Origin: an uncultured Chlamydiae bacterium
GTDB taxonomy: Bacteria > Chlamydiota > Chlamydiia > Chlamydiales > JAJFMB01
Reading direction: 5' to 3'
Assembly (NCBI GenBank): GCA_963696295.1
Contig: CAVOJR010000001.1
Coordinates: forward strand, 2,624,001-2,688,000
DNA: 64,000 nt
The translations under genes were made by a program, and so were the position numbers. This document shows positions 16,390 through 34,274 of the stretch, in pieces. The notes below the pieces were generated by a model, which worked only from the letters and a program-made list of their open reading frames with translations, had not been told where the DNA came from and did not search any database. Position 1 is the stretch's first letter. Each line of letters opens with the position of its first letter.

Positions 16390-16471
16390 GGGGGTGTCGC
16401 ATAGCGGCAATTGCAAGGGACTGTAAATCCCTCGACTTCGGTCTTCGCTGGTTCGAGTCCAGCCGCCCCCA
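16390..16471 (+). tRNA. tRNA-Tyr(GTA), integration target
   Basis: GGGGGTGTCGCATAGCGGCAATTGCAAGGGACT-GTA-AATCCCTCGACTTCGGTCTTCGCTGGTTCGAGTCCAGCCGCCCCCA, long variable arm. Confidence 0.97.
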
Positions 16472-16472
16472 A
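16419..16472 (+). repeat. attL core (3' part of tRNA-Tyr)
   Basis: GACTGTAAATCCCTCGACTTCGGTCTTCGCTGGTTCGAGTCCAGCCGCCCCCAA, identical to 34221-34274. Confidence 0.96.
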
Positions 16473-16755
16473 TCCCTTGATAAACTAAGACTTAAGACAC
16501 AAATAAGTTACCAGTTTTTCGTTCTAAAGTGTGGAAATTCCCCACTTTTTCCCCAATGACACACAACAAAACGCGACAAAGTACAAACCTTTCGGAATCG
16601 CATGTTGTTAGTAAGTTTCTATTTTAGTGTGGAAAAATTGGGGAAAACCACTATTCTTCCCCCCATTGAAACATGTTTTTACGAGACAAAATCTTTCAAC
16701 AAGCAAGGGAATCGTAATCCCTTGACCGTGTTTTTTTGAGGAAAAAGGAGAAGAA

Positions 16756-17814
16756 ATGGCTTCGATCAAAATGAAAAAAGATAAAGATGGAAAAGTGCGC
16801 TTTTATGTGCAAGTGCGCATAAAAGGGTATCCCCAGCAAAATGCGGCATTTACAAGAAAGACCGATGCTGAAAGGTGGATTCAACAAACTGAGGCCGCGA
16901 TCCGGGAGGGTCGCCACTTTAAGACAGTGGAAGCGAAAAAGCATAGCGTTGGCCAAATGATCGATCGCTACATCAGAGATGTTCTGCCTACCAAGAAAAG
17001 GTCGGAGAAAAAGCAAACATCACAGCTTAACTGGTGGAAGGAGCGGATCGGCCATTGCCTATTATCTGATGTGACGCCAGCATTGATCGCCGAGCAAAGA
17101 GATTTTTTGCTTAAGGGCAAGACTATGAGAGGCAGTATCAGGAGCTCATCCACAGTTGTGCGGTATATGGCAGCTCTTTCCCACTCCTTTTCGATTGCGA
17201 TGAGAGAATGGGGTTGGATAGAAGATTCACCCTGCCGGAAAGTTTCAAAGCCCAAAGAGCCTCGCGGAAGAGTTCGCTTCCTCAACGAAGAAGAGAGGAT
17301 TTCATTGCTCCAAGCTTGTCGAGATAGTGAGAATCCCTATCTTTTCATCATCGTGGTTTTGACGCTTTCATGCGGCTTTAGGCAAGCAGAAGTGATGAAT
17401 TTGAAATGGAGCGCTATCGACCTGCAAAGGGGGCGCATAGTGCTGCACGAAACTAAAAATGGCGAAATTCGACAAGCGCCACTCGCCGGACTTGCTCTTG
17501 AATTGGTTGCTGCACTAGATAAAGTTAGAAGAATCGATACCCAGCTGCTATTTCCTGGGAAGTTTCCTAAGAAACCCATCATTATCCGCACTGCGTGGCT
17601 AAATGCATTGAAAAAAGCAAACATCGAGGACTTTCGATTTCATGACTTACGCCATTCGACAGCAAGTTATTTAGCCATGAATGGCGCAACCTTAGCTGAA
17701 ATTGCCGAGGTGCTCGGACATAAGACCTTGGCGATGGTCAAAAGATACGCTCACATTTCGGATACTCACACCTCGAAAGTGGTAGCTGATATGAATCAAA
17801 AAATATTTGGATAA
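16756..17814 (+). CDS. Tyrosine recombinase/integrase
   Basis: Catalytic set intact: CGFRQAE (R), ETKNG (K), FHDLRH (HxxR), LGHK (H), KRYAH (Y). Confidence 0.96.
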   Translation: MASIKMKKDKDGKVRFYVQVRIKGYPQQNAAFTRKTDAERWIQQTEAAIREGRHFKTVEAKKHSVGQMIDRYIRDVLPTKKRSEKKQTSQLNWWKERIGHCLLSDVTPALIAEQRDFLLKGKTMRGSIRSSSTVVRYMAALSHSFSIAMREWGWIEDSPCRKVSKPKEPRGRVRFLNEEERISLLQACRDSENPYLFIIVVLTLSCGFRQAEVMNLKWSAIDLQRGRIVLHETKNGEIRQAPLAGLALELVAALDKVRRIDTQLLFPGKFPKKPIIIRTAWLNALKKANIEDFRFHDLRHSTASYLAMNGATLAEIAEVLGHKTLAMVKRYAHISDTHTSKVVADMNQKIFG

Positions 17815-18691
17815 AGAAATGGAAAGCAAATATTTACTGATACCTCCTTCGTTCAAAGAACTTTTGAATCTGGAATATATTGGGATTCACGAGGCTGCGT
17901 TCCTGCTTTGTGACTGGCCAACACATGAGGGTGAACATTACTTCCCAAATCCCATGGAGCCGTTTAACCCTAAGGAATATGACGGCCGATTTAACCTGAT
18001 TTTCAGCGAGCTGAATAATGCTGTCACCTATAGAGAACTTCACTGCAAAAGATATACTGCTATCCTCGGGGTAGCTTTAAGTGTGAGGCCATACGATGTG
18101 ATTATCTGGGCTCTTCTTAAGAATAAGATTTTGCCAAAACCACTTCAAGCGGTCCTTGGACTTTCCCAGATGCCAAGCTCTGACTTCAATAGATCACGGA
18201 ATGCCTTTATCAACAAAGTTATCTTCCAATGTCTTTTTGTATCAGCTGCAGACGATCAAAGAGAAGACTTGCGCTACTACATTGATCATCCTTGGCTGCA
18301 AAAGAGGGGCTATATGGATGAAATAGAAAAGAAAGCACTCAAGGGACATCTGTTTGAGGCAATCAATTTTAAAGCAGATAAAGGGGGAAAATTGTCGAAG
18401 TATCTGTTGTCGATCACCAGGCTTGAAGAGGTTTTGAATCCTTTGGGGGAATACAACATCCTGGCATTGAAATTACTTATTGAAATTGTCTGCAATTTTG
18501 TTTTGCTTAAAGAAGTGGAGTTCACTCAAGAATCATTTGCGAAGGAAATCCACAATTACTCTGTATGCGCCCCTTATTTCAAGGAAGCCCCGCCTATTTT
18601 ACACAGGATACTAGTGATGATTTGCAAGGAGTTTGTCTGGAAAAGTCCAGTCGTGTATCAACCTGAACATAAACGAAAATTGGAGGAATGA
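17807..18691 (+). CDS. Hypothetical protein coupled to the integrase
   Basis: 294-aa ORF overlapping the integrase stop; no recognisable motif. Confidence 0.65.
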   Translation: MDKEMESKYLLIPPSFKELLNLEYIGIHEAAFLLCDWPTHEGEHYFPNPMEPFNPKEYDGRFNLIFSELNNAVTYRELHCKRYTAILGVALSVRPYDVIIWALLKNKILPKPLQAVLGLSQMPSSDFNRSRNAFINKVIFQCLFVSAADDQREDLRYYIDHPWLQKRGYMDEIEKKALKGHLFEAINFKADKGGKLSKYLLSITRLEEVLNPLGEYNILALKLLIEIVCNFVLLKEVEFTQESFAKEIHNYSVCAPYFKEAPPILHRILVMICKEFVWKSPVVYQPEHKRKLEE

Positions 18692-18788
18692 TTTACCATG
18701 AGATGTCTATTCTTAGAAAGTTGCTGGGTGTTGTATTTTGTTTTGCAGAGCTTTGAATTGTTTCAGGGCTAAGAAAAGGAGAAGAAGA

Positions 18789-19010
18789 ATGACAGAAAAA
18801 AATAGATTTTTGACATGTGCGCAATGGGTTAAGGAGCATAGTTGGCCACCGGCTGGCGGCTTAAGACATTTGATTTTTTTTGCAGAACAAAATGGCTTCA
18901 GCAAAGTCATTCGGCGCGTTGGCCGGAGGGTGCTGATCAGTGAAAAAGACTTTTTTGAATGGATGGAAACAAGCAACCACGATAAGGAGCAATTATCCGC
19001 AATAAAGTAA
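18789..19010 (+). CDS. Excisionase/AlpA-like small DNA-binding protein
   Basis: RBS AAGGAG; SWPPAGGLRHLIF...IRRVGRRVLISEKDFFEWME winged-helix Xis-like pattern. Confidence 0.7.
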   Translation: MTEKNRFLTCAQWVKEHSWPPAGGLRHLIFFAEQNGFSKVIRRVGRRVLISEKDFFEWMETSNHDKEQLSAIK

Positions 19011-19123
19011 TAGGGAATACATTTTTTAGTTGAAAAAGATAAATATTTTCTTATGTAAAAAAATTGAAATTTGATAAAATATAATAATTTAATAAGGAGT
19101 GGTTCATGCAGGGTGATGCAGAG

Positions 19124-19161
19124 AAAAAAAAGCCATGAAGAAGTTACAGCTTCATCATGGC
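19124..19161 (-). terminator. Minus-strand intrinsic terminator
   Basis: Minus strand reads GCCATGATGAAG-CTGTAA-CTTCTTCATGGC-TTTTTTTT (11/12-bp stem plus T8). Confidence 0.65.
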
Positions 19162-19275
19162 GCGAAAAGATACCGAACGTATTCTTTCTCTGCCTCAGAT
19201 TAACATATTATAGCAATCGATTCAATTCGAATCATTACTCACCCCTGCATGGATCTCTTTTAAAAAGAGGTGACC

Positions 19276-19515
19276 ATGTCAACAGAAACCAATATTTTTC
19301 TTGATCGTCTCGAGAAGATTTCCCAAGAAAGGCCCTTTCTTACGAGCAAAGAGCTAGTGGAAGTGAGGGTTTTCGAAACCCTTCAAGATGCCCGAACAGC
19401 TAGGCTAAGCGGGCAAATTGCATTTTGGGAAATGTCCCCAAAATTTTTTGTCTGTCCCATTTCAGAAGTAGTTCGTTATTTGCTTGCGCGTCAAGGATAT
19501 AAGATCAATGAATAA
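19276..19515 (+). CDS. Small putative DNA-binding (excisionase-like) protein
   Basis: RBS AAGAGG; FLTSKELVEV...ARTARLSG...PISEVVRYL resembles HTH_17/Xis pattern. Confidence 0.55.
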   Translation: MSTETNIFLDRLEKISQERPFLTSKELVEVRVFETLQDARTARLSGQIAFWEMSPKFFVCPISEVVRYLLARQGYKINE

Positions 19516-19573: not shown

Positions 19574-22251
19574 ATGATTGATCAAATCGTAAAGGAATTT
19601 GAAAAAAAAGTAAACGAAAATGGATATAATTATTTAAAAAAGCTTCATGATAATGCTAGAAATTTTCTACTGCAAAATGGAATTGAATATGATGGCGAAT
19701 TTTACGAAACGGCCGAAAATGAGATCATTAAGTTTAAGGTTCCACATCCCGAAAGCTCAAGAAAGCTAATTCAATGCTGGCTTAAGTGCTCATATCTTGA
19801 GCGCAAAAATGGAGATCCCGGCTTATGCATAACCTACGGTGCCTTCCACCCTACCCTACCGCAACATGACACAAAAACTTTTTGGATGGATGAAACCTTT
19901 CATCTTAGCGACGAGGAGCGGGCTGCTATTCAAGAGAGGCTGGCGATCAGTAGGCAAATGGCTGATGAGCGGGCAAAAGAGGAGAAAAAAATCGCCGATG
20001 CAAAAGCAGATTGGTGCGTCGAAAAATATCGAGGTGCCTCTCCACAAGGTCACAGTCCTTACTTTGACAGGAAAGGGATCACCCCGAGCGACATCCGATA
20101 TGAGGTTCGTCGCACTTATGCAGAGGATGGAACTGTTGCGGAAGAGACGATCGCTTTAATCCCCCTTAGGAATATTTCTGGAAAAATTCAAGGGCTTCAA
20201 GAGATTTACCCGACAAAAAGGCGCTTCGGTGATGATCCCAAGCCACGCGATAAAAACACCAATGGCACCTATACCTCCTGTTTCTTCACATTCGGCAAAA
20301 TCGAAGATGGCAAACCCATTTGCTTGGCCGAAGGCTATGCGACTGCAGGATCGATTTTCCAATCGATAAATACCACTACCCTAATGACAGTCTCCCGAGT
20401 CAACATTCAAAATGTCGTCAAGGCACTGAAACGGAAATATCCAAACAGCAATATCACCATATGCGCTGATGCCGACCCCGATGGTCTCAAAGATGCAACT
20501 GAGGCGGCGCGAAAGCTCAAATGCAAGTTAGCGGTGCCTAAATTCCCGGAAGGCAGAGACAAAGACGCGGAAGGAAATAGCCATAAAGATTTTAACGATT
20601 TGATGCTGGTGGCCGGCCGGGAAGAAGTTTCAAAACAAATTGAGGAAGCTGCCACCTTTGTAGAAGCCGAAATTGAAGGATCAAAGGTCCCAGAGATACG
20701 GCAAATTCCAGAGAATGGACTTCCTGTGATTAGGGTAACACCTGGCCAGCTCCATGTTATCGTGGACCTTTGCCAAACCGTTTTGCTCAATAACAGCCTG
20801 GGATTATTTCAACGAGGAGGTCAACTTGTCCGAATTATATCAGAAATTAATAAGCCTAAAAAAAATAAGCTCTTAGATAGGAACGGACGCGAAATTATTA
20901 AGCGTGACTCAGATTCACTATTAATTGCTGAAGTTGATCAAACATATCTAACTGAGTTACTGGGAAAATTTGCAAATTGGGCGACGTTTAACGCAAGAGC
21001 TGGAGAATGGTTTATCCGTGATCCATCCGAGAAGGCGGCAAAGACATTGCTTGCAAGAAGGGAATGGGATTTCCCGGTTTTGAGTGGGTTTATAAGAGCC
21101 CCTACGCTTCGTCCTGATGGAACAATACTGGATCGTGAAGGATATGATGAAGGAACAGGTTTATTTTTCGATGCGGGAGCCACTCAATTTGACCCCATCC
21201 CCGTTAACCCCAGCGAAGAAGACGCTCTTATTGCATTGTCGGTATTACAAGAACTACTTAAAGATTTTCCTTTTGAAAACGAAGAAAGTCAATCGGTCGC
21301 TTTATCCGCTATTTTGACCGGACTTGTGCGAAAATCGATTAGAACCGCACCTTTGCACGCATTTACCGCTCCAAAAATGGGAAGCGGTAAAAGTCTTCTA
21401 TGCGACGCGGTCGGCCTTATATGCACAGGCAGAAACAACAGCGTCCTTCCTCAGGCAAGCGATGAAGCAGAGGAAACCAAAAGACTTTTGGCGGTCCTTG
21501 CGGAAGGGGATCCTATTATTTGTTATGACAACGTTGAACGGCCAATTGAAAGCGCTGCCCTTTGTGCAGTATTGACTCAAGAGTTTTTCAAAAATAGAAT
21601 TTTAGGAAAAAGCAGCAATTTGACTGTGCCCACAAACGTACTCTTCATGGCCAACGGGAACAATTTAACTTTCGTTGGCGATATTTCAACAAGAGCTCTT
21701 CTTTGCAATCTTGATCCGCAATGTGAACGGCCAGAAGAACGATCATTTGTCATGGATTTGCGTGCACATATTTCTCAAAACCGGGCTTTATTTGTAAAAG
21801 CGGCTTTAACCATTCTGAGAGCTTACCATTGCGCAGGCAGACCACCCAGAATATTCCGCCATTCGGTCGGTTTGAACAATGGTCAGAATGGGTCAGGTCC
21901 AGTTTGGTTTGGCTGGGAATGAGGGATCCGTGTGCAACAAGAGAGCAAATAGAATGTGGTGATTTCGTTCGGCAGAAATTGGGAGATTTTCTTGCAGCTT
22001 GGTACGAACTTGTTGGCGACCTGAGTATCAAAACAAAAGACATCATCAGAAAAGTGGAGGGATCAGAAAACGAGTTTTTGAAAGAACATTTCAAAGATTT
22101 TGAAAAGAAAGATGGAAAAGTTTGCTCAATTAAATTGGGAGTCCATTTGAAAAAAATCAGCAAACGAATCGAAAACGGTTTTCGTCTTGAAAATAGCGGA
22201 AAATCACAAGGCTTTGATTTATGGAGGGTTAGAAAAATTGTGCTCAAATAA
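19574..22251 (+). pseudogene. TOPRIM primase fused to a P-loop helicase-like domain; frameshifted near 21845
   Basis: CLAEGYATA, ICADAD, DFND (TOPRIM); APKMGSGKS Walker A, CYDNV; C-terminus (QNIPPFGRFEQWSEWVRSSLVWLG) continues in another frame to 22251. Confidence 0.8.
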
Positions 22252-22255
22252 AAAG

Positions 22256-22463
22256 TATTACTTCTGTGAGGGTTGTGAGGGATGTGAGGGTCTGGCATCA
22301 GGTCTAGAGTGTTTAGCAAAAGAAAAAAAAGTGCGGACATGTTCGTTTTTTTATGTATTCTTTTCTTTAAAACGTGCATCTTTTTGTAAAAATTTTCCCG
22401 TGCTAAACACTCTGGACCTAACGTACAACCCTCACATCCCTCACAACCCTCACAGAAGTAATA
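22256..22463. promoter_or_regulatory. Putative replication origin: 63-bp inverted arms with 3+3 TGTGAGGGW iterons around an AT-rich core
   Basis: 22256-22318 vs 22401-22463 are reverse complements (outer 36 bp exact); immediately after the primase gene. Confidence 0.75.
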
Positions 22464-22502: not shown

Positions 22503-22811
22503 ATGGAAATTCAAAATTTCAAGTTGATAAACAAGGGCTACGTGGTAGCTCGATTTGACCTGCACATCGCCGAATGGGGCGGCATGACCATCAAGGAATG
22601 CACGCTCTTTGACAAAAACGGCAGTAAATGGGTTGCACCGCCACAGCGCAGTTTTGAGGCTGAAGGCAAAAAAGGCTATGTGTCTCTAGTTACATTCAGG
22701 AAGGAAATTTTCGAGAAAATTCAGGCGAAAGCAATAGAGCTTTTGGAGCAGGAAATGTCGAGTCCTTTATCCCCAAAAAATCAAGATGAACAGTTGGAGC
22801 TTCCATTTTGA
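22503..22811 (+). CDS. SpoVG-like nucleic-acid-binding protein with SSB-like acidic tail
   Basis: VARFDL..GMTIKECTLFDKNGSKWVAPPQR pattern; ends QDEQLELPF. Confidence 0.6.
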   Translation: MEIQNFKLINKGYVVARFDLHIAEWGGMTIKECTLFDKNGSKWVAPPQRSFEAEGKKGYVSLVTFRKEIFEKIQAKAIELLEQEMSSPLSPKNQDEQLELPF

Positions 22812-24161
22812 AAATAAAACTGAACGCCAATATCGAAAATTCAGAAGCCGACGAAGAACTGCGCAGGCTCATCGTCAATGAAAACACCTTCGACAATCCC
22901 ATTTTCATTTCTAATGAGGAACAGGGGCGTTGGAACGGTGGCACGGAACCAACAATTAGAACGTATAAACGCGGAGACGATGGACGTTTGATACTGCCCC
23001 GTGGCTATGCGCGTACATTGCTGCTCCATTGTAAGGATCAGGAGATAAATCCTGAAATTGTCGATGAAAGAGTGACCACACCTCTTTCTTTTCCACCAGG
23101 ATTGAAAGGCGTGGAACTGCGTCCCTATCAAAACCGCTGTATCGAAGCGGCGATGAAATATGATCAAGGGCTTGTCGTTGTGCCAACGGGCGGTGGTAAA
23201 ACTCTTATCGCCCTCGAGTTAATTCGTTTGCGCCGCCAGAAAGCCATGGTAATCGTTCACCGGCGTGAGCTTTTAAAGCAATGGTGTGCTGTTATTGAGG
23301 AGCGCCTCGGTCTGAAAGCAGGTGTTATAGGTGAGGGGGAGTTTGATATAGGAGCCGAAATCTCGGTGGCGATGGTACAAACCCTAAATTCTTGTTCAGA
23401 TGAGACAAAAAAGATCGTAAATGATTTTGGTTTAATTATTTTGGATGAGGCCCATCACGCTCCAGCCTCCACCTTTTTTGATGTCATAGCTCAATTTCCG
23501 GCAAAATATCGTTACGGTGTCAGCGCAACGCCAACCCGTCGAGATTCTCTTGAGATGCTCATTTTCTACTCAATCGGGCCGATACTACAAGAAGTTACCC
23601 GCAGAGAAGTTGAAAGTGTTGGAGCAGTTGTTCCGGCAAAAATCCTCGTTCTCGACACAAAATTTAAGCCAAAGAGTTGTAATAGCTGGCATGAGTATAT
23701 GTCCATGCTTTCAGCAAATGGTGAAAGAAATAAGTTTATTGTCGATCTAGTTTGCAAAGATGATAAGCCGGTTTTGATCCTTTCCGATCGCGTGAGTCAT
23801 GTCGAGTTGATATCGGAATTTTTAAACAAACGAGGCATTGTCCATGTGGTCGCGCATGGGTCGCTTAAAGATCGCGATGACATCGTGCAGAGAATGAAAG
23901 AGTGCAGAATGACTGTTGCGACGGTCGGATTGCTCGGCGAGGGTGTCGATATTTCGCATTGGGAAAAGGTTATTCTAGCGTCCCCTTTTTTCTTCCGAAG
24001 TGAAGCTAATTCAAGCGATTGGTAGGGCGGTGAGGGCCGCGCCTGGGAAGACGGAAGCCACTATTTTTGATCTCAAAGATGACTGCGGCTTTGCCGGCGC
24101 GAGCTTTAAAAAGCGACACGAAATTTATCGAAAACATGGAATTAAAGTTTTTTTCAATTAA
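22808..24161 (+). pseudogene. Superfamily 2 DEAD/DEAH helicase, frameshifted in T6 at 23986-23991
   Basis: LRPYQ, PTGGGKT, DEAHH, SATP, GEGVD; motif VI (QAIGRAVR) lies in another frame ending TAA 24159-24161. Confidence 0.85.
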
Positions 24162-24170: not shown

Positions 24171-24656
24171 ATGGAAATAAAAATTAGAGAATTTTATCCG
24201 CTCGTGGTAGGCGACGGCCGTATATCAGGGACCATGCGCGTGCTTGTCGAAAATCTCGGGTTGGAATTGCTCGGCGTATTCATCACGAAGAACAAAAATG
24301 GCTGGATTGTACAGTTGCCTCAGCAGCGATCTCTCCATCATGTGACAGGAGATCCAGTCCGATTTCCCATCCTCAGCTTTGTCGATACCATAAAGCAAAA
24401 TGCTCTTGTGGGAGCCATTAGAAAGCAGGCTCCAGCCTTCATTGAGGCATGGATAAAAGCCAAAGGTCCCGGCTATGTCTTTAAGCAGAAAAAAACCGAC
24501 CTCACCAAAACAATTCCAACGAAAGAAAAACAGCAGCAACAAGAAAAGGCGCAGCCAGCCCTTGCAAATGCAACTGAGGGCAAGCAAATGGTCTCCAGCG
24601 CGTTATCAGGAGAGTGGAGGGATCCACCGAAAAAGAAAACCACAAAAAGGAGATAA
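24171..24656 (+). CDS. Second SpoVG-like protein with a basic low-complexity tail
   Basis: GLELLGVFITKNKNGWIVQLPQQR similar to the 22503 ORF. Confidence 0.55.
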   Translation: MEIKIREFYPLVVGDGRISGTMRVLVENLGLELLGVFITKNKNGWIVQLPQQRSLHHVTGDPVRFPILSFVDTIKQNALVGAIRKQAPAFIEAWIKAKGPGYVFKQKKTDLTKTIPTKEKQQQQEKAQPALANATEGKQMVSSALSGEWRDPPKKKTTKRR

Positions 24657-24658
24657 AA

Positions 24659-25414: not shown

Positions 25415-25443
25415 GACAGCGAATAGAATAACTCTCCACAATA

Positions 25444-26019
25444 ATGATAAAGAATATGACTAAAACAATCCCGATCAAAGAGATAATGGACGACCTCCCC
25501 CTCACCCGGGAACAGGTGGCAGCCAAGATAAAGGAGATCGAAGACGATACGGCAGAATTATATGGTTCTATTGTCCGCGCCAGCGTCGATCAAACGCTTG
25601 CTTTAGTGCACGCCATTGGCGCAAAAAATCAACCCCGCCTCTTGCAGCATATTGTCGGTGAAATGGATAATGACATCCTGACGCGCCTTGAGAAAATAGC
25701 GATTGCCCTATCATGTGAGGAGGTGGAAAGTGTCAGCGAAATATTTAATCAGTCGTACGGCTTTCAGCCCCCTTCAGCAGAAACAATCGCCCAGGCCACC
25801 GAATTCCTCAAAAAAATTGTTTCTCTAGATGATGATCCTGAAGCAAAAGCACATCAACTGGCAGCTCATGCCCGGGATATATATTTCCTAGCGAGCGCCA
25901 TAGCTATCGCGAATCTCGGGGAAAATTATAGGCTGGCGACGTTCGATCGGATATGCCAATTGCCTTTAGGGGATATTCAGAAGATGATAAAACTTTTTGA
26001 CGAGCTTGTTGTAAAATGA
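25444..26019 (+). CDS. Hypothetical protein
   Basis: 191-aa helical acidic ORF in element orientation. Confidence 0.65.
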   Translation: MIKNMTKTIPIKEIMDDLPLTREQVAAKIKEIEDDTAELYGSIVRASVDQTLALVHAIGAKNQPRLLQHIVGEMDNDILTRLEKIAIALSCEEVESVSEIFNQSYGFQPPSAETIAQATEFLKKIVSLDDDPEAKAHQLAAHARDIYFLASAIAIANLGENYRLATFDRICQLPLGDIQKMIKLFDELVVK

Positions 26020-26059
26020 GAATAGCTTTACTATAAATAATTTAAACACAAAGGTTTTT

Positions 26060-26368
26060 ATGACGAAAAGAAAATCTATCGATAGTTTATTGCGCGAATT
26101 GAAATTCGCATCGGACGAATGCTGGCAAGCCAAACTTGCGACAAATGACGTAGCCAAGCGACACGCCCCGCTCTGTGCTCAAATTGTTGAGGTGCTAGGT
26201 GTTCCGGCTTTAATCAACCAACGGCTAGCGTTAAGGACAAAAGAGACAGATGGTCGTCCGGTCACTTCCGCTGATTTTTGGGAAAATGAGGACATGATCA
26301 TCGCTCTTTACGAGCACTACTTGGATGCGATCGAATTTGTAAAGGAGGGAGCTGATGGGAGCACCTAA
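26060..26368 (+). CDS. Hypothetical protein upstream of terminase
   Basis: 102-aa ORF overlapping the TerS start. Confidence 0.65.
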   Translation: MTKRKSIDSLLRELKFASDECWQAKLATNDVAKRHAPLCAQIVEVLGVPALINQRLALRTKETDGRPVTSADFWENEDMIIALYEHYLDAIEFVKEGADGST

Positions 26369-26795
26369 AGGGCATGCGCCCTATCCCGGTTGCGAAACAG
26401 GTGGAAGACCAAAGAAGTACACGCCGGAATTCATTGAATCTGAAGCTGATGCTCTCATTGAGTGGTTAAAGAAGGGGGATTTTATTTGGTTTGAACGGTT
26501 TGCGCTGCAGCGAGGTTATGATGCCAATTTATTAAGCCTTTGGGCTTCTGAAAATAAAAAGTTTTCGGGAGCGTATGAATTAGCTAAAACACATCAGAAG
26601 ATTTTGTTAATAGAAAAAGGTCTAAAGAAACAATATTGTTACAATATGGTTCAACTTTTATTAGGTCACCATTATCAGATATTCTCAAAGCAGGAGACGA
26701 AGCTTTCTGGAGATGCGCAGAACCCCCTTCAATTCATCCTCTCAAATATCGACGGCTCTACAAAGGACCTAGTGAATGACGTTGAAGCAGAGTGA
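26355..26795 (+). CDS. Terminase small subunit
   Basis: GGRPKKYTPEFIE N-terminus, FSGAYELAK, position directly upstream of and overlapping TerL; strong GGAGG RBS. Confidence 0.8.
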   Translation: MGAPKGHAPYPGCETGGRPKKYTPEFIESEADALIEWLKKGDFIWFERFALQRGYDANLLSLWASENKKFSGAYELAKTHQKILLIEKGLKKQYCYNMVQLLLGHHYQIFSKQETKLSGDAQNPLQFILSNIDGSTKDLVNDVEAE

Positions 26796-28299
26796 TATCC
26801 AGCTGGCCCAAAAGTGTCTTGCAGATCCGCTGTGGCGAATAAACCACTTGTACCACATAGTCGACAAGAGGGGTCAACAGGTAGTATTTCGACTTAATTG
26901 GGCGCAAGAAGAACTGTATAATAATATGTGGTTTTGCAATGTCATTTTAAAGGCACGTCAATTGGGAATATCGACTTTTATTTGTCTTTTATTTCTCGAT
27001 CGCTGCATTTTTAATTCCAATGTCTCCGCCGGGATCATCGCCCACACCCTAGAGGACGGGCAGCAGATGTTTCGTAGAGTAAAGCACGCCTATGATTGCT
27101 TGCCTGCAGAAATCCGCGCCCTGGTCACGGCCGACAATGACACGGCGGGGATGCTCAAGTTCTCCAATGGATCCTCACTACGTGTTGCGACATCCCTCCG
27201 CTCTTCAACAGTGCAATATTTGCACGTTAGCGAATTTGCGAAGATTTGCAGCCGCTACCCGGAAAAGGCAAGGGAGGTCATGACCGGCGCGCTCAATACG
27301 ATCAGTAGCGACCAGTATGTTTTCGTCGAATCGACGGCGGAAGGTCGCGAGGGGTCTTTTTTCGACATGGTACAGCGGGCTAGGGCACTTCAGGAATCTG
27401 GTGAGAGGCTCACTTCGTTGGACTATAAATTTTTCTTCTTCCCTTGGCATCGCTGCCCTGAGTACACGCTACGAGATAACGTCATCATACCCCCGGAAAC
27501 AGCTAAATACTTCGAGGAATTGGAGGCTAAGGGGATCCGTCTTTGGCCCGCACAAAAACATTGGTACGTTAAAAAACAGGAGACACAACAATCGGATATG
27601 ATGCGGGAGTATCCATCCGATCCCGACGAGTCCTTCCACACCTCCCTTGAAGGCGCGTACTATTCCCGGCAATTGATGCAGGCGAGGACCGAGAAGCGCA
27701 TCTGTTTTCTGCCTCATGACCCGAATTTGCCCGTGTCTACCTCTTGGGATTTGGGCTTCGGCGACTCTACGAGCATTTGGTTTTTCCAGATTTACGAAAA
27801 AGAGATCCGGTTTATCGAGTACTATGAGAACAGCGGTGAGCCGCTTACTTTTTACCTCAAACTGCTTCAAGATCGGCCGTATCAATACCACAAGCATTTA
27901 GTGCCGCATGACGCTGGTGTGCATGAATTTAGTACCGGCCTATCACGTGTGGAGGTGGCGAGGAAACTTGGTTTCACCTTTACGAAGGTGCCTGATATTG
28001 GCTTGGACTCGGGCATCGATGCGGTCAGGAATGTGCTTTCGCGCTGCTTCTTTGACAAAGAGAAGTGTGCCGGAGGGATCAAGTGCTTGGAGTCATATCG
28101 CAGGGCCTGGAATGATGCTCATGGCTGTTGGTCCAGCAAACCGCATCATGACAAATTCTCCCATGGGGCCGATGCTTTTCGCATGATGGCAGTGGGGCTT
28201 CGCTTGGTCGAGAGGAGCATGAGCTATGATCAGTCAGATGGCGGGCGCACGCTTGGCTACACACCATATCCCGGCGGAAAACCGAAATCGATTTTCTGA
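26776..28299 (+). CDS. Terminase large subunit
   Basis: ILKARQLGISTF (Walker A), YLHVSEFA (Walker B), ESTAEG (motif C), SWDLGFGDSTSIWF and SHGADAF (RNase H-like nuclease). Confidence 0.93.
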   Translation: MTLKQSDIQLAQKCLADPLWRINHLYHIVDKRGQQVVFRLNWAQEELYNNMWFCNVILKARQLGISTFICLLFLDRCIFNSNVSAGIIAHTLEDGQQMFRRVKHAYDCLPAEIRALVTADNDTAGMLKFSNGSSLRVATSLRSSTVQYLHVSEFAKICSRYPEKAREVMTGALNTISSDQYVFVESTAEGREGSFFDMVQRARALQESGERLTSLDYKFFFFPWHRCPEYTLRDNVIIPPETAKYFEELEAKGIRLWPAQKHWYVKKQETQQSDMMREYPSDPDESFHTSLEGAYYSRQLMQARTEKRICFLPHDPNLPVSTSWDLGFGDSTSIWFFQIYEKEIRFIEYYENSGEPLTFYLKLLQDRPYQYHKHLVPHDAGVHEFSTGLSRVEVARKLGFTFTKVPDIGLDSGIDAVRNVLSRCFFDKEKCAGGIKCLESYRRAWNDAHGCWSSKPHHDKFSHGADAFRMMAVGLRLVERSMSYDQSDGGRTLGYTPYPGGKPKSIF

Positions 28300-28408: not shown

Positions 28409-29485
28409 ATGGTCCAAGTTTTGCCATCACGAGAACAAAGCTTTCTACAATCCTTATTCGGAGGCGCGGCAGCCGGAGCGGAGGCGACGGGCAAAATGCT
28501 TCCACAGTTGCAGCAGATGCAACAGCAGAAACAGCGGGCGCAGGACTACAGCAAAGCCCTTGGAGGCATCGAAAAGATCTACGCCAACCCCGATTTGACC
28601 GAGCAACAAAAGCTGATTTCAGCCTATAAAGAGCTCGGCTCACACCCAGAACTTGCGCCGCACCTGGGTAGCCAGCTGACACGGGCAGGAGCTCAGCAAG
28701 AGAGTTTCAAAGACAAGCTGATGAAACAGCAGCAATTGGATCAGTCCTTCCAGAAGATTCAGCAAATGTACGCCGATCCCAACCTCACCGACGAGCAGAA
28801 GGTTTTCGGGGTCTATCAAGAGCTTGCGCAGAATCCTACCTTGGCCGCCAGTCTGACCAGTGCCATGCAGAAACCGGCAAAGACCCGCGGCGAAGACATA
28901 GCAGGCCAGCAGTATGCCCGGGGCTACGATGCGATAGTTTCCGGTGATACTTCTGCCCTCAACGAAGTCCTGCACGATCCGGAAACATCCTACGCCGTAA
29001 AAAGGCAGCTTACCGACCTTCGCGACAAGTATGAGACCCGAAAAGGGGTGCAGTCCAGGGAGCTTCGACAACGTCAGTCGATGGTCCAAAAAAGCTACAA
29101 GCAAGCCATTGAGGCTCAGAAAAAGATTTTGGACAATGTCTATACCGACGACAAAGAGAAGCCAGCGATTAGGAAAGAGATCAAGCGCCTGGAAGCCCTG
29201 GAAAAACATGATTTGAAGAAACTGACCAAGAACCCCGACAGTTACCCCTCCCTCGCCCTCTGGAACAATCTGGATCCCGACTACTTTCCTGAAGAGACCG
29301 AAGAAGAAGAGGAGCTCTTCACAGAAAGAGAGCAACCAGCTGAGGAGAAAAGCGATGTCGATGAGCGCGTCGAGTTTTTGAATGGGACTTTTCCCCCTCT
29401 TCAGTTCAAGGGTAAGAAAAAGCAGGACAAATCAGGCAGAGTATATGAATCGGACGGTAAGACATGGCGACTAGTACAAGGATAG
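28409..29485 (+). CDS. Gln-rich protein resembling a podophage internal virion/ejection protein
   Basis: Gly/Ala N-terminus, Q-rich helices, internal duplication (IYANPDLTEQQK / MYADPNLTDEQK), C-terminal GRVYESDGKTW; lies upstream of a giant LPD38-like gene. Confidence 0.55.
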   Translation: MVQVLPSREQSFLQSLFGGAAAGAEATGKMLPQLQQMQQQKQRAQDYSKALGGIEKIYANPDLTEQQKLISAYKELGSHPELAPHLGSQLTRAGAQQESFKDKLMKQQQLDQSFQKIQQMYADPNLTDEQKVFGVYQELAQNPTLAASLTSAMQKPAKTRGEDIAGQQYARGYDAIVSGDTSALNEVLHDPETSYAVKRQLTDLRDKYETRKGVQSRELRQRQSMVQKSYKQAIEAQKKILDNVYTDDKEKPAIRKEIKRLEALEKHDLKKLTKNPDSYPSLALWNNLDPDYFPEETEEEEELFTEREQPAEEKSDVDERVEFLNGTFPPLQFKGKKKQDKSGRVYESDGKTWRLVQG

Positions 29486-32400
29486 GGTTGGATGAGTTCA
29501 CGGACCTATCCGATGAATTCACCGATTTTGAACCAACTCCACAGGCAAAACCACAATTTTCCATGGAAAAAGGTGGTAAAGCATCACGTTTTGCCAATGA
29601 ATTTACGGACTTTTCCGACGAATTCAGCGATATTGAGTCAAATGAGCCAAATGAGTCAATCGCTAAGCGGGCAGCGCACACCCCCTACGACGTGCCGGAG
29701 CTTACTCCTGAGCAGACAAAGAAGATGTCGCCGGCAGAGCGGCTACAATATGTGAAAGACTTGGCTACCGAGCGGGAATACAGACAGAGCAAAGGGGTGA
29801 CTAAGGGTCTTTTATCCGGCGCAACCCTTGGCCTATCTGAGAAGATTCCAGGACTTGCCCCGGAAGAAGGTGACTTTCTTATGGGCTTCGGTGAATTTAT
29901 GGGGAGTGCCCTTCCAATTAGCAAGCTTTACAGCGTCCTTGGCGGCCCCTTGGTCAAACTGGCTGCAAAGAGCCCTAAGTATGCCAATGCCCTCCAATCT
30001 CTCGCCCGCATGACCGGCTTTGGTTTAACCGGCGCGACGTATGAAGGTGCCAAGGAGACCATTAAGACCGGCGAAGTGCCGTCCCCCGATGAGCTGGTCA
30101 AGTATGGCGCGCAGTGGGCTGCCTTTGATGGAGCGCTTCAGCTATTGGGTAAAGCAGCCGCCCCCTTTCTCAACAAAATGAAGAGTGTGGCTGAAACCAA
30201 TAAGATCCCCGAGCGAGAAGTGCTGAATACCGTGATGGACAGCTTGGCCGATCGCAAGATCAGCATTGAAGAGGATCCAGCAGCAGCGATAAAAGCGGCC
30301 GAGGACATCCTTGCCGACTACCCCCGCAAGATGCAATCGGCAAGGGAGGAGCGCATCTCCGCCTTGAAGGCCAAAGAGGCCGAAGCCGAAGCCAAGATCA
30401 CCGAGCCTTTCAAGCAAAAGATTGAGAATGTGGAAGGGCAGCAAAAGCATGTGATTGAAGGGCGCAAAGAAGAGGTGAAAAGGGCCGAGGAATCCTTTGA
30501 TAAAAAAAGAGAACAGCTACAAGAAAGATCCACAGACCTTGACAGGGAAATAGACACTAAGCTGGAGACCTTTGCCGAAAAGGAAGAGGCAATCACCTCC
30601 CAGTTTGAATCGCAAAAAGAGCAGCAGATCGACAAACTTCGCAAGCAGTCCGAAAAGGAGCTTTCCGCTAAGACCCGCGACATTGAGAAGACGATCACCA
30701 CCTTGGAAAAAGAAATTGATAAGCGCAAAGCGAAGTCTGTGAAAGAAGTGGCGGCCGTCGAATCCCAAATTGTGAAAGCCAAGGAAAAGGGGCAGCCCAC
30801 AAAGCGCCTTGAGAACGCAAAAGACTCCCTGCAAAACAAAGCTGACAGGCACATTGAATCTCTGCAAAGTGCAATAGACAAACAGCAGCAGCGCATCGAT
30901 GTCTTCAGGGATAAAGCAGCCGCGGCCCTGGAAACAAAGATTGATAAAATAGCCGCCAAGGACCTCCCTTCCTCTGCCCTGGCTCCCATCGAAAAGGGGA
31001 TGAACACCCTTGAGAAGGAGATCGCCAAGAAAAAGAAGATCATTGCCGACTCAGAAACACAGCTGGCTAAAGAGAAAAACCTCAAAATCGCCGAACTTAA
31101 AAAAGACGCAGAGGCCAAGCTGAAGCAGCTGGAAGGTAAGAAGGGGGAGATCGAAGCCAAACAGGCTGAACGCTTGAAATTACAGCGCGCTAAAGTATAC
31201 CGCGAGCGCCACCCCGAGATCAAAGTGACTGCCGGCAAAAAACTCCCGGCTGTACGTGCCCAGGCCGTCACCGAGCCCATTATCGAAACTACCGGCAAAG
31301 GTGCAGCTGAGCGCATCGAGCATCCGAAAAAGGGAATCGATAAGATCATCGAGAAGATGAATAATTTCGTTCAGGCAGCCAAAACCCCTAAGCAGAGCTT
31401 AAAGCGCCTTGGAGAGGGAATAAACGAGGCTGTGTTCAATGCTTTGGCCCCGCTTGAGAAAGCCGAAGCGGGAGTGCCCGTTCCTGAACGCGTTTCGACC
31501 AAAATTAAGCTTGCCCAATCCGTTGCATCTGAGATTGACTCCGTGCTTGAGAATGGCATCTTCAGCAACCTCACCGGCAAGTTTGAGCATGGCGGCTTAA
31601 AGGAAGCCTATGGCGATCTGACTTGGAAAAAGCTGTCAAAGGGCCTCAAGGAAGGGGAATTCAGTCTTGAGGATCTCGATGCCTACCGCACCTCTAAAAT
31701 TGCCCTGAAGCGCCAATCTGAGGGCAAGAAAACGGGGATAGACACTAAGAAATCTGTCCAAGATATCGCCCGGCTAAAGAGCAAATACGAGCCCATTGAC
31801 AAACGGATCCGCGATTTCCAGAAAGCGACACTGGTCACCTACGGCAAGGATCTACTCGGCAAGGACCTGATTGCCGATTGGAACAAAGACTACTACAGCC
31901 CCCTTTATCGCATCATGGAAGAAGGCAAGGATGCCATACTTTCCGCCGGATCTCTCAAGCCAAAGCAACCATTCAAAAAGATGGTTGGCAGTGAGCGCAA
32001 GATAATCCCTCCCTCTGAAAGTGACCCCTACAATGCCGCTCTCTTGATCCGCAATGCCCGCAAGAATGATGCAGTGCTGCAATACCGCGATCTTGTGCTT
32101 AAGGGTGAGCTGCCCGGCAGGATAAAGGCTGCCAAAGTGGATCCGGTTCCAGCCTATGTCCTCGACGAGCTTGGAATCGATTCCGACATGAAGAATCTGG
32201 CAGAAGCCCTCTACAACCAGACGCGCACCGACGCTTTTACCCCTGAAGTGAACACCCTTCGCGGCTGGAAAGACGGCAAGCCCTTCCTCATCGAAGTGCC
32301 GGAAGATATATACAAAGTTTTTTCAACGCTGGCCCCGCAGGACCGATCCGGACTTGCGCAGATATTCAGCACCACCAACAGGCTCTTTTCCCGCGGCATA

Positions 32401-33903
32401 TCGATGGCACCGCGCAAGTTTGTCTCCATCATGAGCCGGGACGCCCTCTCTTCACTGGTCTACTCAAAGACAGGCAGCAACCCTCTCAGTGTTGTGGAGG
32501 CCCTCTCTGACATTCACAAAGCAAGCCCCGTCTATAAGGAGTTTCTTGCTATGGGCGGCGACGTGTATGCCTCCCGCCTGGCTGAGCGCATCGACCGGGC
32601 CAAGAAGATCGAGGACCTGATCACCCCCGGCAAAGAGGGCATACTGGTGCCTTTCGAGAAGATGGGCGACTACCTTCGCAAATATAGCGAGAGTCTCGGC
32701 GATATATCCCTGGCAGTTCCGCTTGGCGAGTACAAAAGGGCGCTTGCCAAGTATGGCAGTACACCGGAAGGGCGCATCATGGCAGCGATGGAGGCCCGTC
32801 GCGTCACCTATGACCCTACCCGAAAAGGGGGCAGCAAGATAGTCCGGGACATTGGAAATTTCGTGCCGTTTTGGAATGTCAGCCTTCAAGACATGTCCAT
32901 GCTCGGGCGCAACCTGGACACGCCATCAGCCTGGGCGAAGGGGATCGTCGCTATTTCCACCCCTACTCTTCTCCTGAAAATGGCCAACGAAAACAACCCA
33001 GACTATCAGGATCTGAATGCCGTGGACAAAGCCGCTTTCTGGCACCTCTACTTCGGCGACAAGCATTTGCGCGTCCCGATCCCCTGGCTGCTTGGAACGA
33101 CCTTTAAAGTGGCAGCTGAGGGTTTCTATGAGACTGTACAGGATATGAGGAACAAGGGCGATAAGAGGGCAGCAGAGGCATGGAAAGGGCTGTACAGCAA
33201 CTTTACTGAGAACCTGTCTGGCTCACTCCCCCCTATCGCTAAAGCATACATAGAAACAGCAACAGGCAAATCCCCGATGTCGCCATTATCAGCGATTTTG
33301 GGCACGGAAAGCCGCGCTCCCGACGTCATTCCCCGCCGCCTGGAAAACCTTCCTGCAAAGTACCAGGTCACCGCTAAGACAAGCCAGCTGGCAAGGCAGT
33401 TTGGCGATCTGTGGGGTGTTTCCCCTGTCAAACTGGAGCGGATGATCAAGAACTTCGGCGGCAATGTGGCAACGGATCTGCTTGCCCTGACCGATGAGAT
33501 CGCCTACTTCAGCGGCATGGCCGAGGATGAAAGACCGGAGCAAAGAGAGGCCAATTATCTCCTGCTCGGCAACTTTGTGTCGAACAGCCCCACCTCAAGA
33601 ACGAAGTACGCTAATGAGTTCTACAGCTTATTGAATGAAGCCCGAGAGAGCAAGGCAGCGGAAAGGTTGATCAAAAGCAAAGGCATCATAGATCCTGAAT
33701 TGAATGAAATCCAATACCGTGGCACTCCTCTTTTCAAATACAACAGCGAAATTTCGAAGCTATTTAAGGCGATGCGCGCAGCAGAGGAAAACAAAGCCCT
33801 GTCAGGTGCAGAGAAAAAAGAGAAACTGGATGGCTATCAGGTTAAGATCAATGCCCTCTACAAAAAGGCCGTTGAGCAAGCTCGCAAAGCTGCAAAGGAT
33901 TAA
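29464..33903 (+). CDS. Large ejection-protein-like polypeptide with long coiled coil and LPD38-like C-terminal domain
   Basis: 1479 aa; N-terminal DEFTD repeats, Gly/Ala membrane-like segment, K/E coiled coil, FVPFWN..LQ / NPDYQDL..VDK..FWH / RVPIPWLLG / SPVKLER pattern recalled for LPD38. Confidence 0.7.
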   Translation: MATSTRIGLDEFTDLSDEFTDFEPTPQAKPQFSMEKGGKASRFANEFTDFSDEFSDIESNEPNESIAKRAAHTPYDVPELTPEQTKKMSPAERLQYVKDLATEREYRQSKGVTKGLLSGATLGLSEKIPGLAPEEGDFLMGFGEFMGSALPISKLYSVLGGPLVKLAAKSPKYANALQSLARMTGFGLTGATYEGAKETIKTGEVPSPDELVKYGAQWAAFDGALQLLGKAAAPFLNKMKSVAETNKIPEREVLNTVMDSLADRKISIEEDPAAAIKAAEDILADYPRKMQSAREERISALKAKEAEAEAKITEPFKQKIENVEGQQKHVIEGRKEEVKRAEESFDKKREQLQERSTDLDREIDTKLETFAEKEEAITSQFESQKEQQIDKLRKQSEKELSAKTRDIEKTITTLEKEIDKRKAKSVKEVAAVESQIVKAKEKGQPTKRLENAKDSLQNKADRHIESLQSAIDKQQQRIDVFRDKAAAALETKIDKIAAKDLPSSALAPIEKGMNTLEKEIAKKKKIIADSETQLAKEKNLKIAELKKDAEAKLKQLEGKKGEIEAKQAERLKLQRAKVYRERHPEIKVTAGKKLPAVRAQAVTEPIIETTGKGAAERIEHPKKGIDKIIEKMNNFVQAAKTPKQSLKRLGEGINEAVFNALAPLEKAEAGVPVPERVSTKIKLAQSVASEIDSVLENGIFSNLTGKFEHGGLKEAYGDLTWKKLSKGLKEGEFSLEDLDAYRTSKIALKRQSEGKKTGIDTKKSVQDIARLKSKYEPIDKRIRDFQKATLVTYGKDLLGKDLIADWNKDYYSPLYRIMEEGKDAILSAGSLKPKQPFKKMVGSERKIIPPSESDPYNAALLIRNARKNDAVLQYRDLVLKGELPGRIKAAKVDPVPAYVLDELGIDSDMKNLAEALYNQTRTDAFTPEVNTLRGWKDGKPFLIEVPEDIYKVFSTLAPQDRSGLAQIFSTTNRLFSRGISMAPRKFVSIMSRDALSSLVYSKTGSNPLSVVEALSDIHKASPVYKEFLAMGGDVYASRLAERIDRAKKIEDLITPGKEGILVPFEKMGDYLRKYSESLGDISLAVPLGEYKRALAKYGSTPEGRIMAAMEARRVTYDPTRKGGSKIVRDIGNFVPFWNVSLQDMSMLGRNLDTPSAWAKGIVAISTPTLLLKMANENNPDYQDLNAVDKAAFWHLYFGDKHLRVPIPWLLGTTFKVAAEGFYETVQDMRNKGDKRAAEAWKGLYSNFTENLSGSLPPIAKAYIETATGKSPMSPLSAILGTESRAPDVIPRRLENLPAKYQVTAKTSQLARQFGDLWGVSPVKLERMIKNFGGNVATDLLALTDEIAYFSGMAEDERPEQREANYLLLGNFVSNSPTSRTKYANEFYSLLNEARESKAAERLIKSKGIIDPELNEIQYRGTPLFKYNSEISKLFKAMRAAEENKALSGAEKKEKLDGYQVKINALYKKAVEQARKAAKD

Positions 33904-34220
33904 AACTCCCAGCCACAGGATCGTTTTACAAATCCAAAAGAGATCATTGAGGCAGCAGCATAACTCCATCTTCCCAACAATGAATCAAGCATTTCGCCTA
34001 CAGACATATTTTGGCCGATAAAATGGCCGATATCTGGCTGCCCTGGCCAATAATACCGCACGATCTCGAGGAAGTCACAGAGCTTTTCCCCAAAAATTCC
34101 CCACTCAAGTGGGACAGTTTGCGACAAATGAAAAAAAACGACAAATGATAAATTTATCTAAACAATTAATCGTATTGTTGTTATGATTCGCGTAATGTTG
34201 TGCTAAATTGGGTTTTGGAA

Positions 34221-34274
34221 GACTGTAAATCCCTCGACTTCGGTCTTCGCTGGTTCGAGTCCAGCCGCCCCCAA
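34221..34274 (+). repeat. attR core (duplicated 3' part of tRNA-Tyr)
   Basis: Exact 54-bp copy of 16419-16472; 5' half of the tRNA absent. Confidence 0.96.

Follow-up and report, generated by a model that had tools for sequence, protein, structure and literature searches.

Introduction

The described systems closest to the locus reported here are the phage-inducible chromosomal islands (PICIs), which carry the small terminase subunit (TerS) only, and the capsid-forming PICIs (cf-PICIs), of which terL, the gene for the large terminase subunit (TerL), is a distinguishing core component among the four families of SatelliteFinder (PMC10085698; bioRxiv 10.1101/2022.09.08.507074). The marine virion-encapsidated integrative mobile elements (VEIMEs) and the tycheposons carry, in their published descriptions, small terminase subunits or a capsid gene, and the TerL of VEIMEs is presumably supplied by the helper. 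In chlamydiae, the only well-characterised phages are microviruses (PMC5010888). The element considered here lies in a stretch of 64,000 nucleotides (the window) from the genome of an uncultured chlamydia (contig CAVOJR010000001.1, positions 2,624,001 to 2,688,000), in which it occupies 17,802 bp in a tRNA-Tyr gene. It encodes both TerS and TerL, followed by a glutamine-rich protein of 358 amino acids (aa) and a 1479-aa protein with an LPD38 domain, and no head, tail or lysis gene was recognised among its 20 open reading frames (ORFs). Searches of an open-access library listed no matching description of a satellite with TerL but without capsid genes. On the basis of the comparisons given below, we consider it marginally probable that the element is an integrative phage satellite belonging to a family that is common in environmental chlamydiae and carries a new set of hijacking genes.

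The Element and Its Terminase

The borders of the element agree with the original prediction, a reading of the window alone that had proposed exact 54-bp attachment repeats and an excised circle of 17,802 bp. A repeat search of the window and genome recovered two exact 54-nt direct repeats, attL (16419..16472) and attR (34221..34274), at a spacing of 17,802 bp. The attL repeat consists of the 3' part of the integration target, a tRNA-Tyr(gta) gene identified with ARAGORN (16390..16471, + strand), and one flanking base; a tRNA-Thr gene, also found with ARAGORN, lies directly beside it. The 23-nt core of the repeat occurs at two sites in the window, where 100 shuffles gave an expectation of 0, and at no further site across the 3.43-Mb, two-contig genome. 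A third copy of the attachment site, or a tandem element downstream, was considered and rejected, the core with up to three mismatches being present at the same number of sites, 2. All long ORFs between the repeats are on the + strand.

Pfam and PHROGs profile searches of the 20 ORFs identified both terminase subunits, in line with the original prediction. TerS (146 aa, 26355..26795, + strand) matches phrog_3064 at 4e-6, and its homologue (45% identical) in a metagenome contig of the same architecture, L088, matches PF16677 (GP3_package) at 3.9e-8; a TerS of the P22 gp3 type suggests pac packaging. TerL (507 aa, 26776..28299, + strand) matches phrog_2 at 3e-32 and phrog_2472 at 1.3e-87, and in an alignment it retains every ATPase and nuclease motif that is invariant in the TerLs of portal-bearing phages. 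All invariant motifs are kept in 7/7 aligned element copies, the pairwise identity of which is only 51-72%.

In IMG/VR, 83 sequences are related to TerL, with identities of 30-56%. In all 12 of the loci listed, an ORF of 546-733 aa follows TerL; this ORF is a portal in 4/4 annotated loci, two of which (L002 and L007) also have a recognisable major capsid protein downstream. Because portal and capsid follow TerL there, the phage relatives carry a block that is absent from the window. In a FastTree tree of TerL (midpoint root, supports not printed), one group comprises 14 portal-less copies from chlamydial genomes (13 islands and the element of genome G389, both described below), the window, L088 and a single portal-bearing phage of 41 kb (L012), which has a TerS homologue (44%) and a small ORF in common with the window.

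Absence of Head, Tail and Lysis Genes

Neither Pfam nor PHROGs gave a match to portal, capsid, scaffold, protease, tail or lysis families, or to a head-tail adaptor or connector, in the 20 ORFs. Profiles of our own for portal, capsid and scaffold proteins were made from 8-11 phages with a related TerL. When six elements were translated in six frames (1,137 ORFs), the portal and capsid profiles reached no better than E 0.15; on phage loci outside the training set they gave 1e-37 to 1e-81. The scaffold profile matched none of the six elements' ORFs and none of the control loci either, and this negative is uncontrolled. Structure models of two ORFs, the 358-aa protein and the C-terminal domain of the LPD38 protein, point the same way as the family searches and the portal and capsid profiles, so the earlier observation that no ORF looks like a portal, capsid, scaffold, tail or lysis protein stands.

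The 358-aa and LPD38 Proteins

The glutamine-rich gene that had been noted after TerL was recovered as an ORF of 358 codons (28409..29485, + strand), the almost all-helical product of which belongs to no Pfam or PHROGs family. Besides the window protein, the family has 19 homologues, all on contigs of at most 22.4 kb, and appears to be specific to the ~18-kb elements. The AlphaFold2 model (20-row alignment; pLDDT 72, pTM 0.35) is helical throughout, with a disordered acidic segment and a small beta unit at the C-terminus, and has no HK97 or portal features. A fold search with this model gave no significant match (best PDB E 0.18, best BFVD E 0.01, TM below 0.2). As for a relationship to scaffold proteins, the scaffold profile did not match the 358-aa protein, nor did it match the control loci. 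Homology with the phage gene located just upstream of the LPD38 gene was not supported (hhalign probability 0.5%, E 0.12).

The 1479-aa protein (29464..33903, + strand) comprises an N-terminal Gly-rich hydrophobic region, a variable coiled coil and a conserved C-terminal domain of ~870 aa that contains LPD38 (PF18857, 7.2e-22 at residues 1179-1362; 78.8 bits against a curated cut-off of 27), which bears out its earlier description as LPD38-like. LPD38 is the only Pfam domain in the 1,479 aa, and the fused effector or enzymatic domains of polyvalent proteins were not found. The C-terminal 880 residues were modelled with pLDDT 76 and pTM 0.74. This model has no match to a solved fold (Foldseek best E 0.24; VIA-align Z below 8, with terminal helices only), and a PDB profile search of the protein returned coiled-coil noise only. 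LPD38 is described as confined to phage-type polyvalent proteins (PMC5512222), and gp47 of the podophage phi24B, which contains the domain, was found by proteomics to be part of virions, and a role as ejection protein has been proposed for it (bioRxiv 10.64898/2026.04.10.717836). By analogy, we infer that the window protein is of the virion or ejection type. The "ejection-like" label of the original prediction is thus backed by this literature and by the position of the gene in related phages, but not by a fold match.

The 48 close LPD38 homologues (46-80% identity) were divided by their longest contigs, the length of an assembled contig being only a proxy for class, into an "18-kb" class (16.7-22.4 kb, n = 12), a "40-kb" class (37.7-42.4 kb, n = 17) and 19 others with mostly shorter contigs. 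When the C-terminal domain was used for a quick maximum-likelihood tree with a midpoint root, 12 of the 13 "18-kb" rows (the window being one of the 13) grouped in a single clade (SH-aLRT 99) that is nested among "40-kb" rows and itself contains none; one row of 18.9 kb lies elsewhere. Judged from the trees, element TerLs and element LPD38 domains each appear to form a near-exclusive clade nested among portal-bearing phages of ~40 kb. Among the 86 TerL-related IMG/VR loci, tblastn at 1e-4 found the 358/LPD38 pair in none. A single-protein scan of the viral contig set gave 0 matches, and an alignment-based scan gave two records of ~40 kb. In the TerL-related viral records, a distant LPD38 (25% identity) occurs in 2/5, inside proteins of ~3,000 aa, and there is none in the closest record (G402).

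Related Elements in Chlamydiota

The contig L088 (18,458 bp, of which 17,532 bp were read) is the sole contig of the ~18-kb class whose gene content was read. It is collinear with the window from the helicase to the LPD38 gene, with identities of 72% for TerL, 48-52% for the 358-like gene and 72% for the LPD38 protein, and it also has primase-C; ParA and HNH genes take the place of the integrase, and there is neither portal nor capsid. Elsewhere in the phylum, of which 400 genomes were sampled, the LPD38 domain was found in three genomes (G389, G323 and G089) at 26-28% identity. The element of G389 lies in a tRNA-Asn gene between 50-bp repeats 24,076 bp apart and has the order integrase, primase, helicase, TerS, TerL (60% identical), toxin-antitoxin pair, invertase, 358-like gene, LPD38 gene and ankyrin cargo; the integrase-primase-helicase-TerS-TerL-LPD38 synteny for which the original prediction had proposed a search in Chlamydiota therefore recurs there. 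In G323, a block of TerS, TerL, 358-like and LPD38 genes with a split TerL shares a 32.8-kb contig (G323:C24) with ParA and UPF0137 genes (PF03677, 1.1e-52; L117 11978-13713), which look like a plasmid backbone. The block of G089 adjoins a tRNA-Asn gene and has only a stub of TerL. The window integrase is 57-62% identical to those of the G389 and G089 elements.

Serine recombinases of the DNA-invertase type (phrog_125, up to 8e-70) are encoded just upstream of the 358-like gene in G389 (L115 12489-13046) and G323 (L117 2840-3442). Eukaryote-like cargo is also present: two ankyrin-repeat proteins in G389 (L116 1911-3731) and a RING-finger protein in G089 (L118 14587-15339). With such cargo, related elements could carry host-interaction genes between chlamydiae.

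The window genome contains only two TerL genes, both in elements without a capsid gene. The second element (G000:C1:2157070-2174329; L105 2070-19329) is inserted at tRNA-Leu(taa) with 62-nt repeats 17,198 bp apart and encodes an integrase, an integrase-like protein, DnaB, an SF2 helicase, a single-stranded DNA-binding protein (SSB), a resolvase and an excisionase-type helix-turn-helix (HTH) protein; searches with Pfam, PHROGs and our own profiles found no portal or capsid in it. Its TerL belongs to an unrelated family (Terminase_6N; phrog_2 1.8e-43), so that two unrelated motors occur in the same architecture within one genome. Directly after this TerL comes a 940-aa protein, the first 37 aa of which are 78% identical to the 358-aa protein; over the next ~320 aa it is similar to the N-terminal part of phage LPD38 proteins. 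At L105 7806-7871 there are three exact 22-bp tandem repeats, and the resolvase (L105 17985-18662) matches phrog_95 at 1e-49 and phrog_125 at 2.7e-39. A third, decayed element (element A; G000:C1 ~1,466,000-1,474,200, L106) at tRNA-Thr(cgt) retains an integrase (47%), a helicase (49%) and a homologue of the 161-aa ORF of the window; several insertion sequence (IS) transposases lie inside it, TerL is missing and an ankyrin-repeat ORF is nearby.

The wider distribution was assessed through TerL. Relatives occur in 62/401 (about 15%) of the sampled Chlamydiota genomes and in 0/30 genomes of one family (f4), most of which are 1.0-1.2 Mb in size. Thirteen of the 14 full-length TerL loci inspected are without a portal by our own profile, and the downstream ORFs submitted from these 13 islands gave no head or tail family in PHROGs. 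TerS lies upstream in 12 of the 13, and the stretch read contains an integrase homologue in 10, which in nine adjoins a tRNA gene. The genes after TerL are mostly cargo, encoding methyltransferase-like proteins, ATPases (phrog_12316), a kinase, an ABC transporter and acetyltransferases; L164 is the only inspected island with a 358-like gene, which is accompanied by a 767-aa protein. The 14th locus (G015:C46), with a portal beside TerL, was not counted as a chlamydial phage, since this 20-kb contig of a 160-contig assembly has 61% GC and may be mis-binned. Across the elements, the tRNA genes used as targets are those for Tyr, Leu, Asn, Met, Ser, Phe and Lys, some with exact repeats.

The finding that would have pointed to a one-off deletion and against the original prediction, a portal-capsid-tail block between TerL and the 358-like gene in relatives at this position, is absent from L088, G389, G323, G089, L164 and the second element. 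Because the relatives that carry a 358-like gene and a large protein all lack the block, and because the clades are nested, a satellite is favoured over a one-off deletion, which is very unlikely on these sequence comparisons.

Related Phages and a Possible Helper

A complete phage related to the element is represented by G001, a 40,286-bp record with direct terminal repeats (CheckV 100% complete) in which a portal and a capsid protein are present and in which TerL is 48% and the LPD38 protein 43% identical to those of the window. Upstream of its LPD38 gene are a tail-like gene of 900 aa and then three small genes; tail-fibre and K1-lyase-like genes come after it. In T7-like podophages, the genes for internal virion (ejection) proteins occupy this position.

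A helper prophage elsewhere in the window genome, suggested earlier as something to look for, was not found. A tblastn search with all ORFs of nine related loci returned nothing beyond the elements' own genes; neither a PF05065 capsid nor a portal of the related group is present in the genome; and the phrog_1357 capsid profile gave no match in it, although its control also matched nowhere. Since none is resident, a helper would have to come from outside.

In the 400 Chlamydiota genomes, the portal profile matches 12. On a 137-kb contig of one of them (G285:C1 ~53,500-76,000, L174-L176), a G001-like block contains TerS, TerL, portal, scaffold, capsid and tail genes, the tail genes being in the order of G001; its TerL is interrupted by ~3 kb, and its portal and capsid are 41% and 43% identical to those of G001. 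On one flank, in the stretch read, the genes are 48-70% identical to chromosomal genes of the window genome, and by these comparisons the contig is genuinely chlamydial and the block a prophage of a tailed phage. In G150, a TerL that is 40% identical to that of the second element lies beside portal and capsid genes, and G252 has a ~40-kb contig with TerL, portal and capsid. Because phage blocks of this kind exist in the phylum in G285, G150 and G252, an exogenous podophage-like helper is plausible on sequence grounds.

Integration and Replication Genes and Flanks

The integrase noted earlier as intact is a full-length tyrosine integrase of 352 aa (16756..17814, + strand; PF00589 1.4e-29, phrog_1 5e-62). 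It is adjoined by a 294-aa ORF (17807..18691, + strand) without a Pfam or PHROGs family, for which an Atlas search gave no named neighbour and which shows weak similarity to its positional counterpart in element A (23% over 217 aa). Three small ORFs of 90, 77 and 81 aa follow (18738..19515, + strand). They had been called Xis-like, a label that finds no support in Pfam or PHROGs, where none of the three has a match; the 90-aa ORF has homologues at the same position in G389, G089 and L160.

The predicted primase, origin and helicase are all present, but the frames of both enzymes are broken, which the earlier description did not include. The Toprim/D5-type primase (19574..22251, + strand; phrog_29234) is split into 782 aa and 140 aa in different frames. 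The first ORF (19574-21922) matches Toprim_3 at 4e-7 and phrog_29234 at 3.4e-94, with a further match to phrog_2249, and the last ~140 residues are encoded in another frame at 21829-22251; positions 349-721 of phrog_29234 correspond to the first ORF and positions 721-861 to the second. An origin-like inverted repeat (22256..22463) has 71-nt arms at 22256-22326 and 22393-22463, which are 86% complementary, and 9-bp iterons, TGTGAGGGT in 3 copies and ACAACCCTC in 3.3. A 102-aa ORF (22503..22811, + strand) is common to related phages (tblastn: L012 29%, L098 36%). The SF2 (ResIII/DEAD) helicase identified by Pfam and PHROGs extends over 22808..24161 (+ strand); its ORF at 22808-24025 matches ResIII at 9.5e-27 and phrog_16 at 1e-68, and a T6/C4 run near 23983-23994 precedes a change of frame that puts the C-terminal ~57 aa outside this ORF; the L088 helicase aligns across the two frames. 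These breaks may be real lesions or assembly errors, and because of them the window copy may be impaired or mis-assembled. Between the helicase and TerS lie a conserved 161-aa ORF (24171..24656, + strand) with homologues in several related elements and phages (L088, element A, L164, L012, G285 and G150) and three ORFs of 266, 191 and 102 aa (24614..26368, + strand), of which the 266-aa ORF matches HTH_AraC only at 0.0028.

The GC content inside the element is mosaic, at 0.38-0.46 from the integrase to TerS and 0.49-0.56 from TerL through the LPD38 gene, with a genome mean of 0.47; this contrast suggests that the packaging and delivery module and the replication module have different histories. 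No phage genes were found in the right flank (34.3-64 kb), which consists of housekeeping genes and a low-GC patch (0.32-0.41) directly 3' of attR (window 34300-41000). The patch encodes an XRE-type HTH protein (36180-36497), a Schlafen/AlbA_2 and HATPase_c_4 protein (36494-37885) and an HNH endonuclease (39647-40186), and may be a defence-type islet or a leftover of an earlier insertion at the same tRNA gene. Two TerS-TerL islands in other genomes (G195:C5, L160; G277:C3, L162) adjoin the same tRNA-Thr(tgt)/tRNA-Tyr(gta) pair as the element, and the integrase of one of them is 59% identical to that of the window; the site may be a recurrent hotspot. The host genome encodes four TLC nucleotide transporters above the curated cut-off, which is consistent with a chlamydia; the order to which it belongs also includes a genus (g5, 25 genomes sampled) with listed genome sizes of 1.0-1.2 Mb in 1-10 contigs.

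Proposed Mechanism and Alternative Explanations

A possible mechanism is proposed for the transfer of the element. When a ~40-kb podophage-like tailed phage with homologous TerL and LPD38 proteins infects the cell, the element would excise and replicate. The element TerS would pick the element's own DNA, and the element TerL could dock on the helper portal and fill helper-made heads by headful. The 358-aa and LPD38 proteins may then become internal (ejection-type) components of these heads and accompany the DNA into the next cell. In the sub-lineage with LPD38, the DNA-loading and DNA-delivery parts of the helper would be replaced, and its shell and tail would be borrowed. The element sizes of 17.2-18.5 kb are 0.43-0.46 of 40.3 kb, which would correspond to ~2.2 copies per full head or to one copy in a smaller head. 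That the element is a satellite with its own motor and delivery proteins, as originally predicted, gains from the recurrence of the architecture and from the nested clades, whereas the packaging, the delivery and the identity of the helper that we infer go beyond these comparisons. The broader proposal of a widespread and hitherto undescribed class of chlamydial satellites, which possess a complete terminase motor and no heads and of which one sub-lineage adds internal or ejection proteins, is made tentatively, at a little short of an even chance.

Several observations weigh against the satellite reading. The window genome has no resident helper, the primase and helicase of the window copy are frame-broken, and decay is seen in other copies (numerous IS elements in element A, a split TerL in G323 and a TerL stub in G089). 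Neither fold nor profile searches gave a significant match for the 358-aa protein, the comparison with the phage gene at the same position included (E 0.12); the top PDB row, a chain of a cyanophage pre-ejectosome, is a hint only at E 0.18. In most of the 13 TerS-TerL islands, TerL is followed by ordinary cargo and not by the 358/LPD38 pair, so the delivery-protein part of the model holds for a subset only. The genome size ratio for P4/P2 and for SaPI1/80alpha is ~0.35. At 17.8/40.3 = 0.44, the element exceeds this value, and size alone is no proof of small-capsid packaging; an argument from size for packaging into small (T=4) capsids was dropped for this reason.

The alternative that survives best is a lineage of defective prophage remnants, in which a podophage-like prophage lost its portal-to-tail block once and the remnant has since persisted and spread only by its integrase or passively, its terminase and LPD38 genes being relics that are decaying. 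The broken primase and helicase, the decayed relatives and the missing helper all fit such a history. It is nevertheless considered unlikely, because the invariant TerL motifs are kept in every aligned element copy despite the divergence of their sequences, many tRNA targets are in use, some with exact repeats, free ~18-kb contigs exist, one of them with ParA, and two unrelated TerL families have converged on one architecture in one genome.

The element could instead be an interference island, in which TerS and TerL, and in some copies the homologues of virion proteins, sabotage the packaging or assembly of an invading phage, with transduction being optional. Many related islands carry defence-like cargo after TerL (methyltransferase-like proteins, ATPases and a kinase), G389 has a toxin-antitoxin pair, and known satellites are reported to disturb helper packaging (PMC11417361, PMC10085698, PMC9618062). 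In those satellites, however, interference and transfer are not exclusive, and a motif-intact full motor, an own origin and the clustering of sizes at ~18 kb exceed the needs of a decoy; interference as the main role is decidedly unlikely.

A complete small virus with capsid, portal and tail proteins too divergent to be recognised, for which the 294-, 266-, 191- and 161-aa ORFs or the 358-aa protein would be the candidates, is highly improbable: seven ORFs of at least 100 aa have no family, ~18-kb contigs recur as if they were complete genomes and structure models cover two ORFs only, but the orphan ORFs except the 161-aa ORF are not conserved between the window and L088, the 294-aa ORF belongs to the integrase module, the 358-aa model is almost all helix without HK97 or portal features, packaging by TerL needs a portal of ~300 aa or more that no ORF fits, and the closest TerL relatives all have a portal of ~700 aa.

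Comparison with Known Systems

As an integrative satellite, the element resembles cf-PICIs in having its own TerS and TerL, an integrase and a primase (PMC10085698; bioRxiv 10.1101/2022.09.08.507074). Unlike the element, cf-PICIs have their own capsid, protease, portal and head-tail connector genes and take only tails from the helper; the element has the LPD38 protein instead. PICIs, including the pathogenicity islands of Staphylococcus aureus (SaPIs), are likewise ~10-18-kb islands at tRNA or att sites with an integrase, a primase-replicase, an origin and TerS. They redirect packaging into helper capsids with TerL supplied by the helper, whereas the element encodes TerL and the LPD38 protein. 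Pfam and PHROGs gave no match in the 20 ORFs to AlpA, Stl, MerR or Cpm-type genes, the small ORFs being without any family, or to Psu, Sid, Delta, Eps and AlpA of the P4 type, divergent versions of which could escape such searches. The element also differs from a complete Caudoviricetes prophage, no portal, HK97-fold capsid and tail genes having been found in it.

The Pseudomonas satellite AH14b (16.8 kb; helper AH14a, 55 kb) has, like the element, an integrase and a primase and no structural genes, and is packaged by headful as multimers (trimers) in full-size helper heads (PMC4936722). These headful multimers make AH14b a precedent for ~2.2 copies of a 17.8-kb element in a 40-kb head. Differences are that no terminase was found in AH14b by its authors and that its helper is a co-resident prophage (PMC4936722). 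The LPD38 protein shares its PF18857 domain with gp47 of phi24B and gp69 of the Bcep22-like phage JC1. Proteins of the phi24B/JC1 type have 2,800-4,600 aa and enzymatic domains and belong to complete phages, while that of the window has 1,479 aa with no enzymatic domain recognised and belongs to an element without a capsid.

Within chlamydiae, the genomic island PnaK_GI2 of Protochlamydia naegleriophila is situated directly downstream of a tRNA-Thr gene and contains a putative TerL (PMC5010888), and two chlamydial plasmids have a phage terminase among their "phage group" genes (PMC7846284). They are described there as an island and as plasmid genes derived from phages, with no satellite reading, family or LPD38 link in the passages concerned, and the likeness to the element is one of description. 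New here are the 358/LPD38 pair, the ~40-kb phage relatives, the two size classes and the nested clades, as well as the second element with an unrelated TerL and the candidate helper-type prophages in chlamydial contigs. To our knowledge, no system of a ~40-kb podophage-like virus and a chlamydia has been characterised. If the proposed class of chlamydial satellites is real, such viruses must infect intracellular chlamydiae inside protist hosts. The islands and the G285 prophage suggest that environmental chlamydiae have tailed phages and satellite-mediated transduction, with a cargo that includes ankyrin and RING proteins, and this bears on DNA exchange among obligate intracellular bacteria, an open question in chlamydial biology. 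The satellite reading would also mean that hijacking can extend to the interface between terminase and portal and to the internal virion proteins. Known satellites either borrow the TerL of the helper, as do PICIs, P4, the PICI-like elements (PLEs), marine VEIMEs and tycheposons, or bring the head module, as do cf-PICIs; the element, if it is indeed a satellite, would represent a third strategy.

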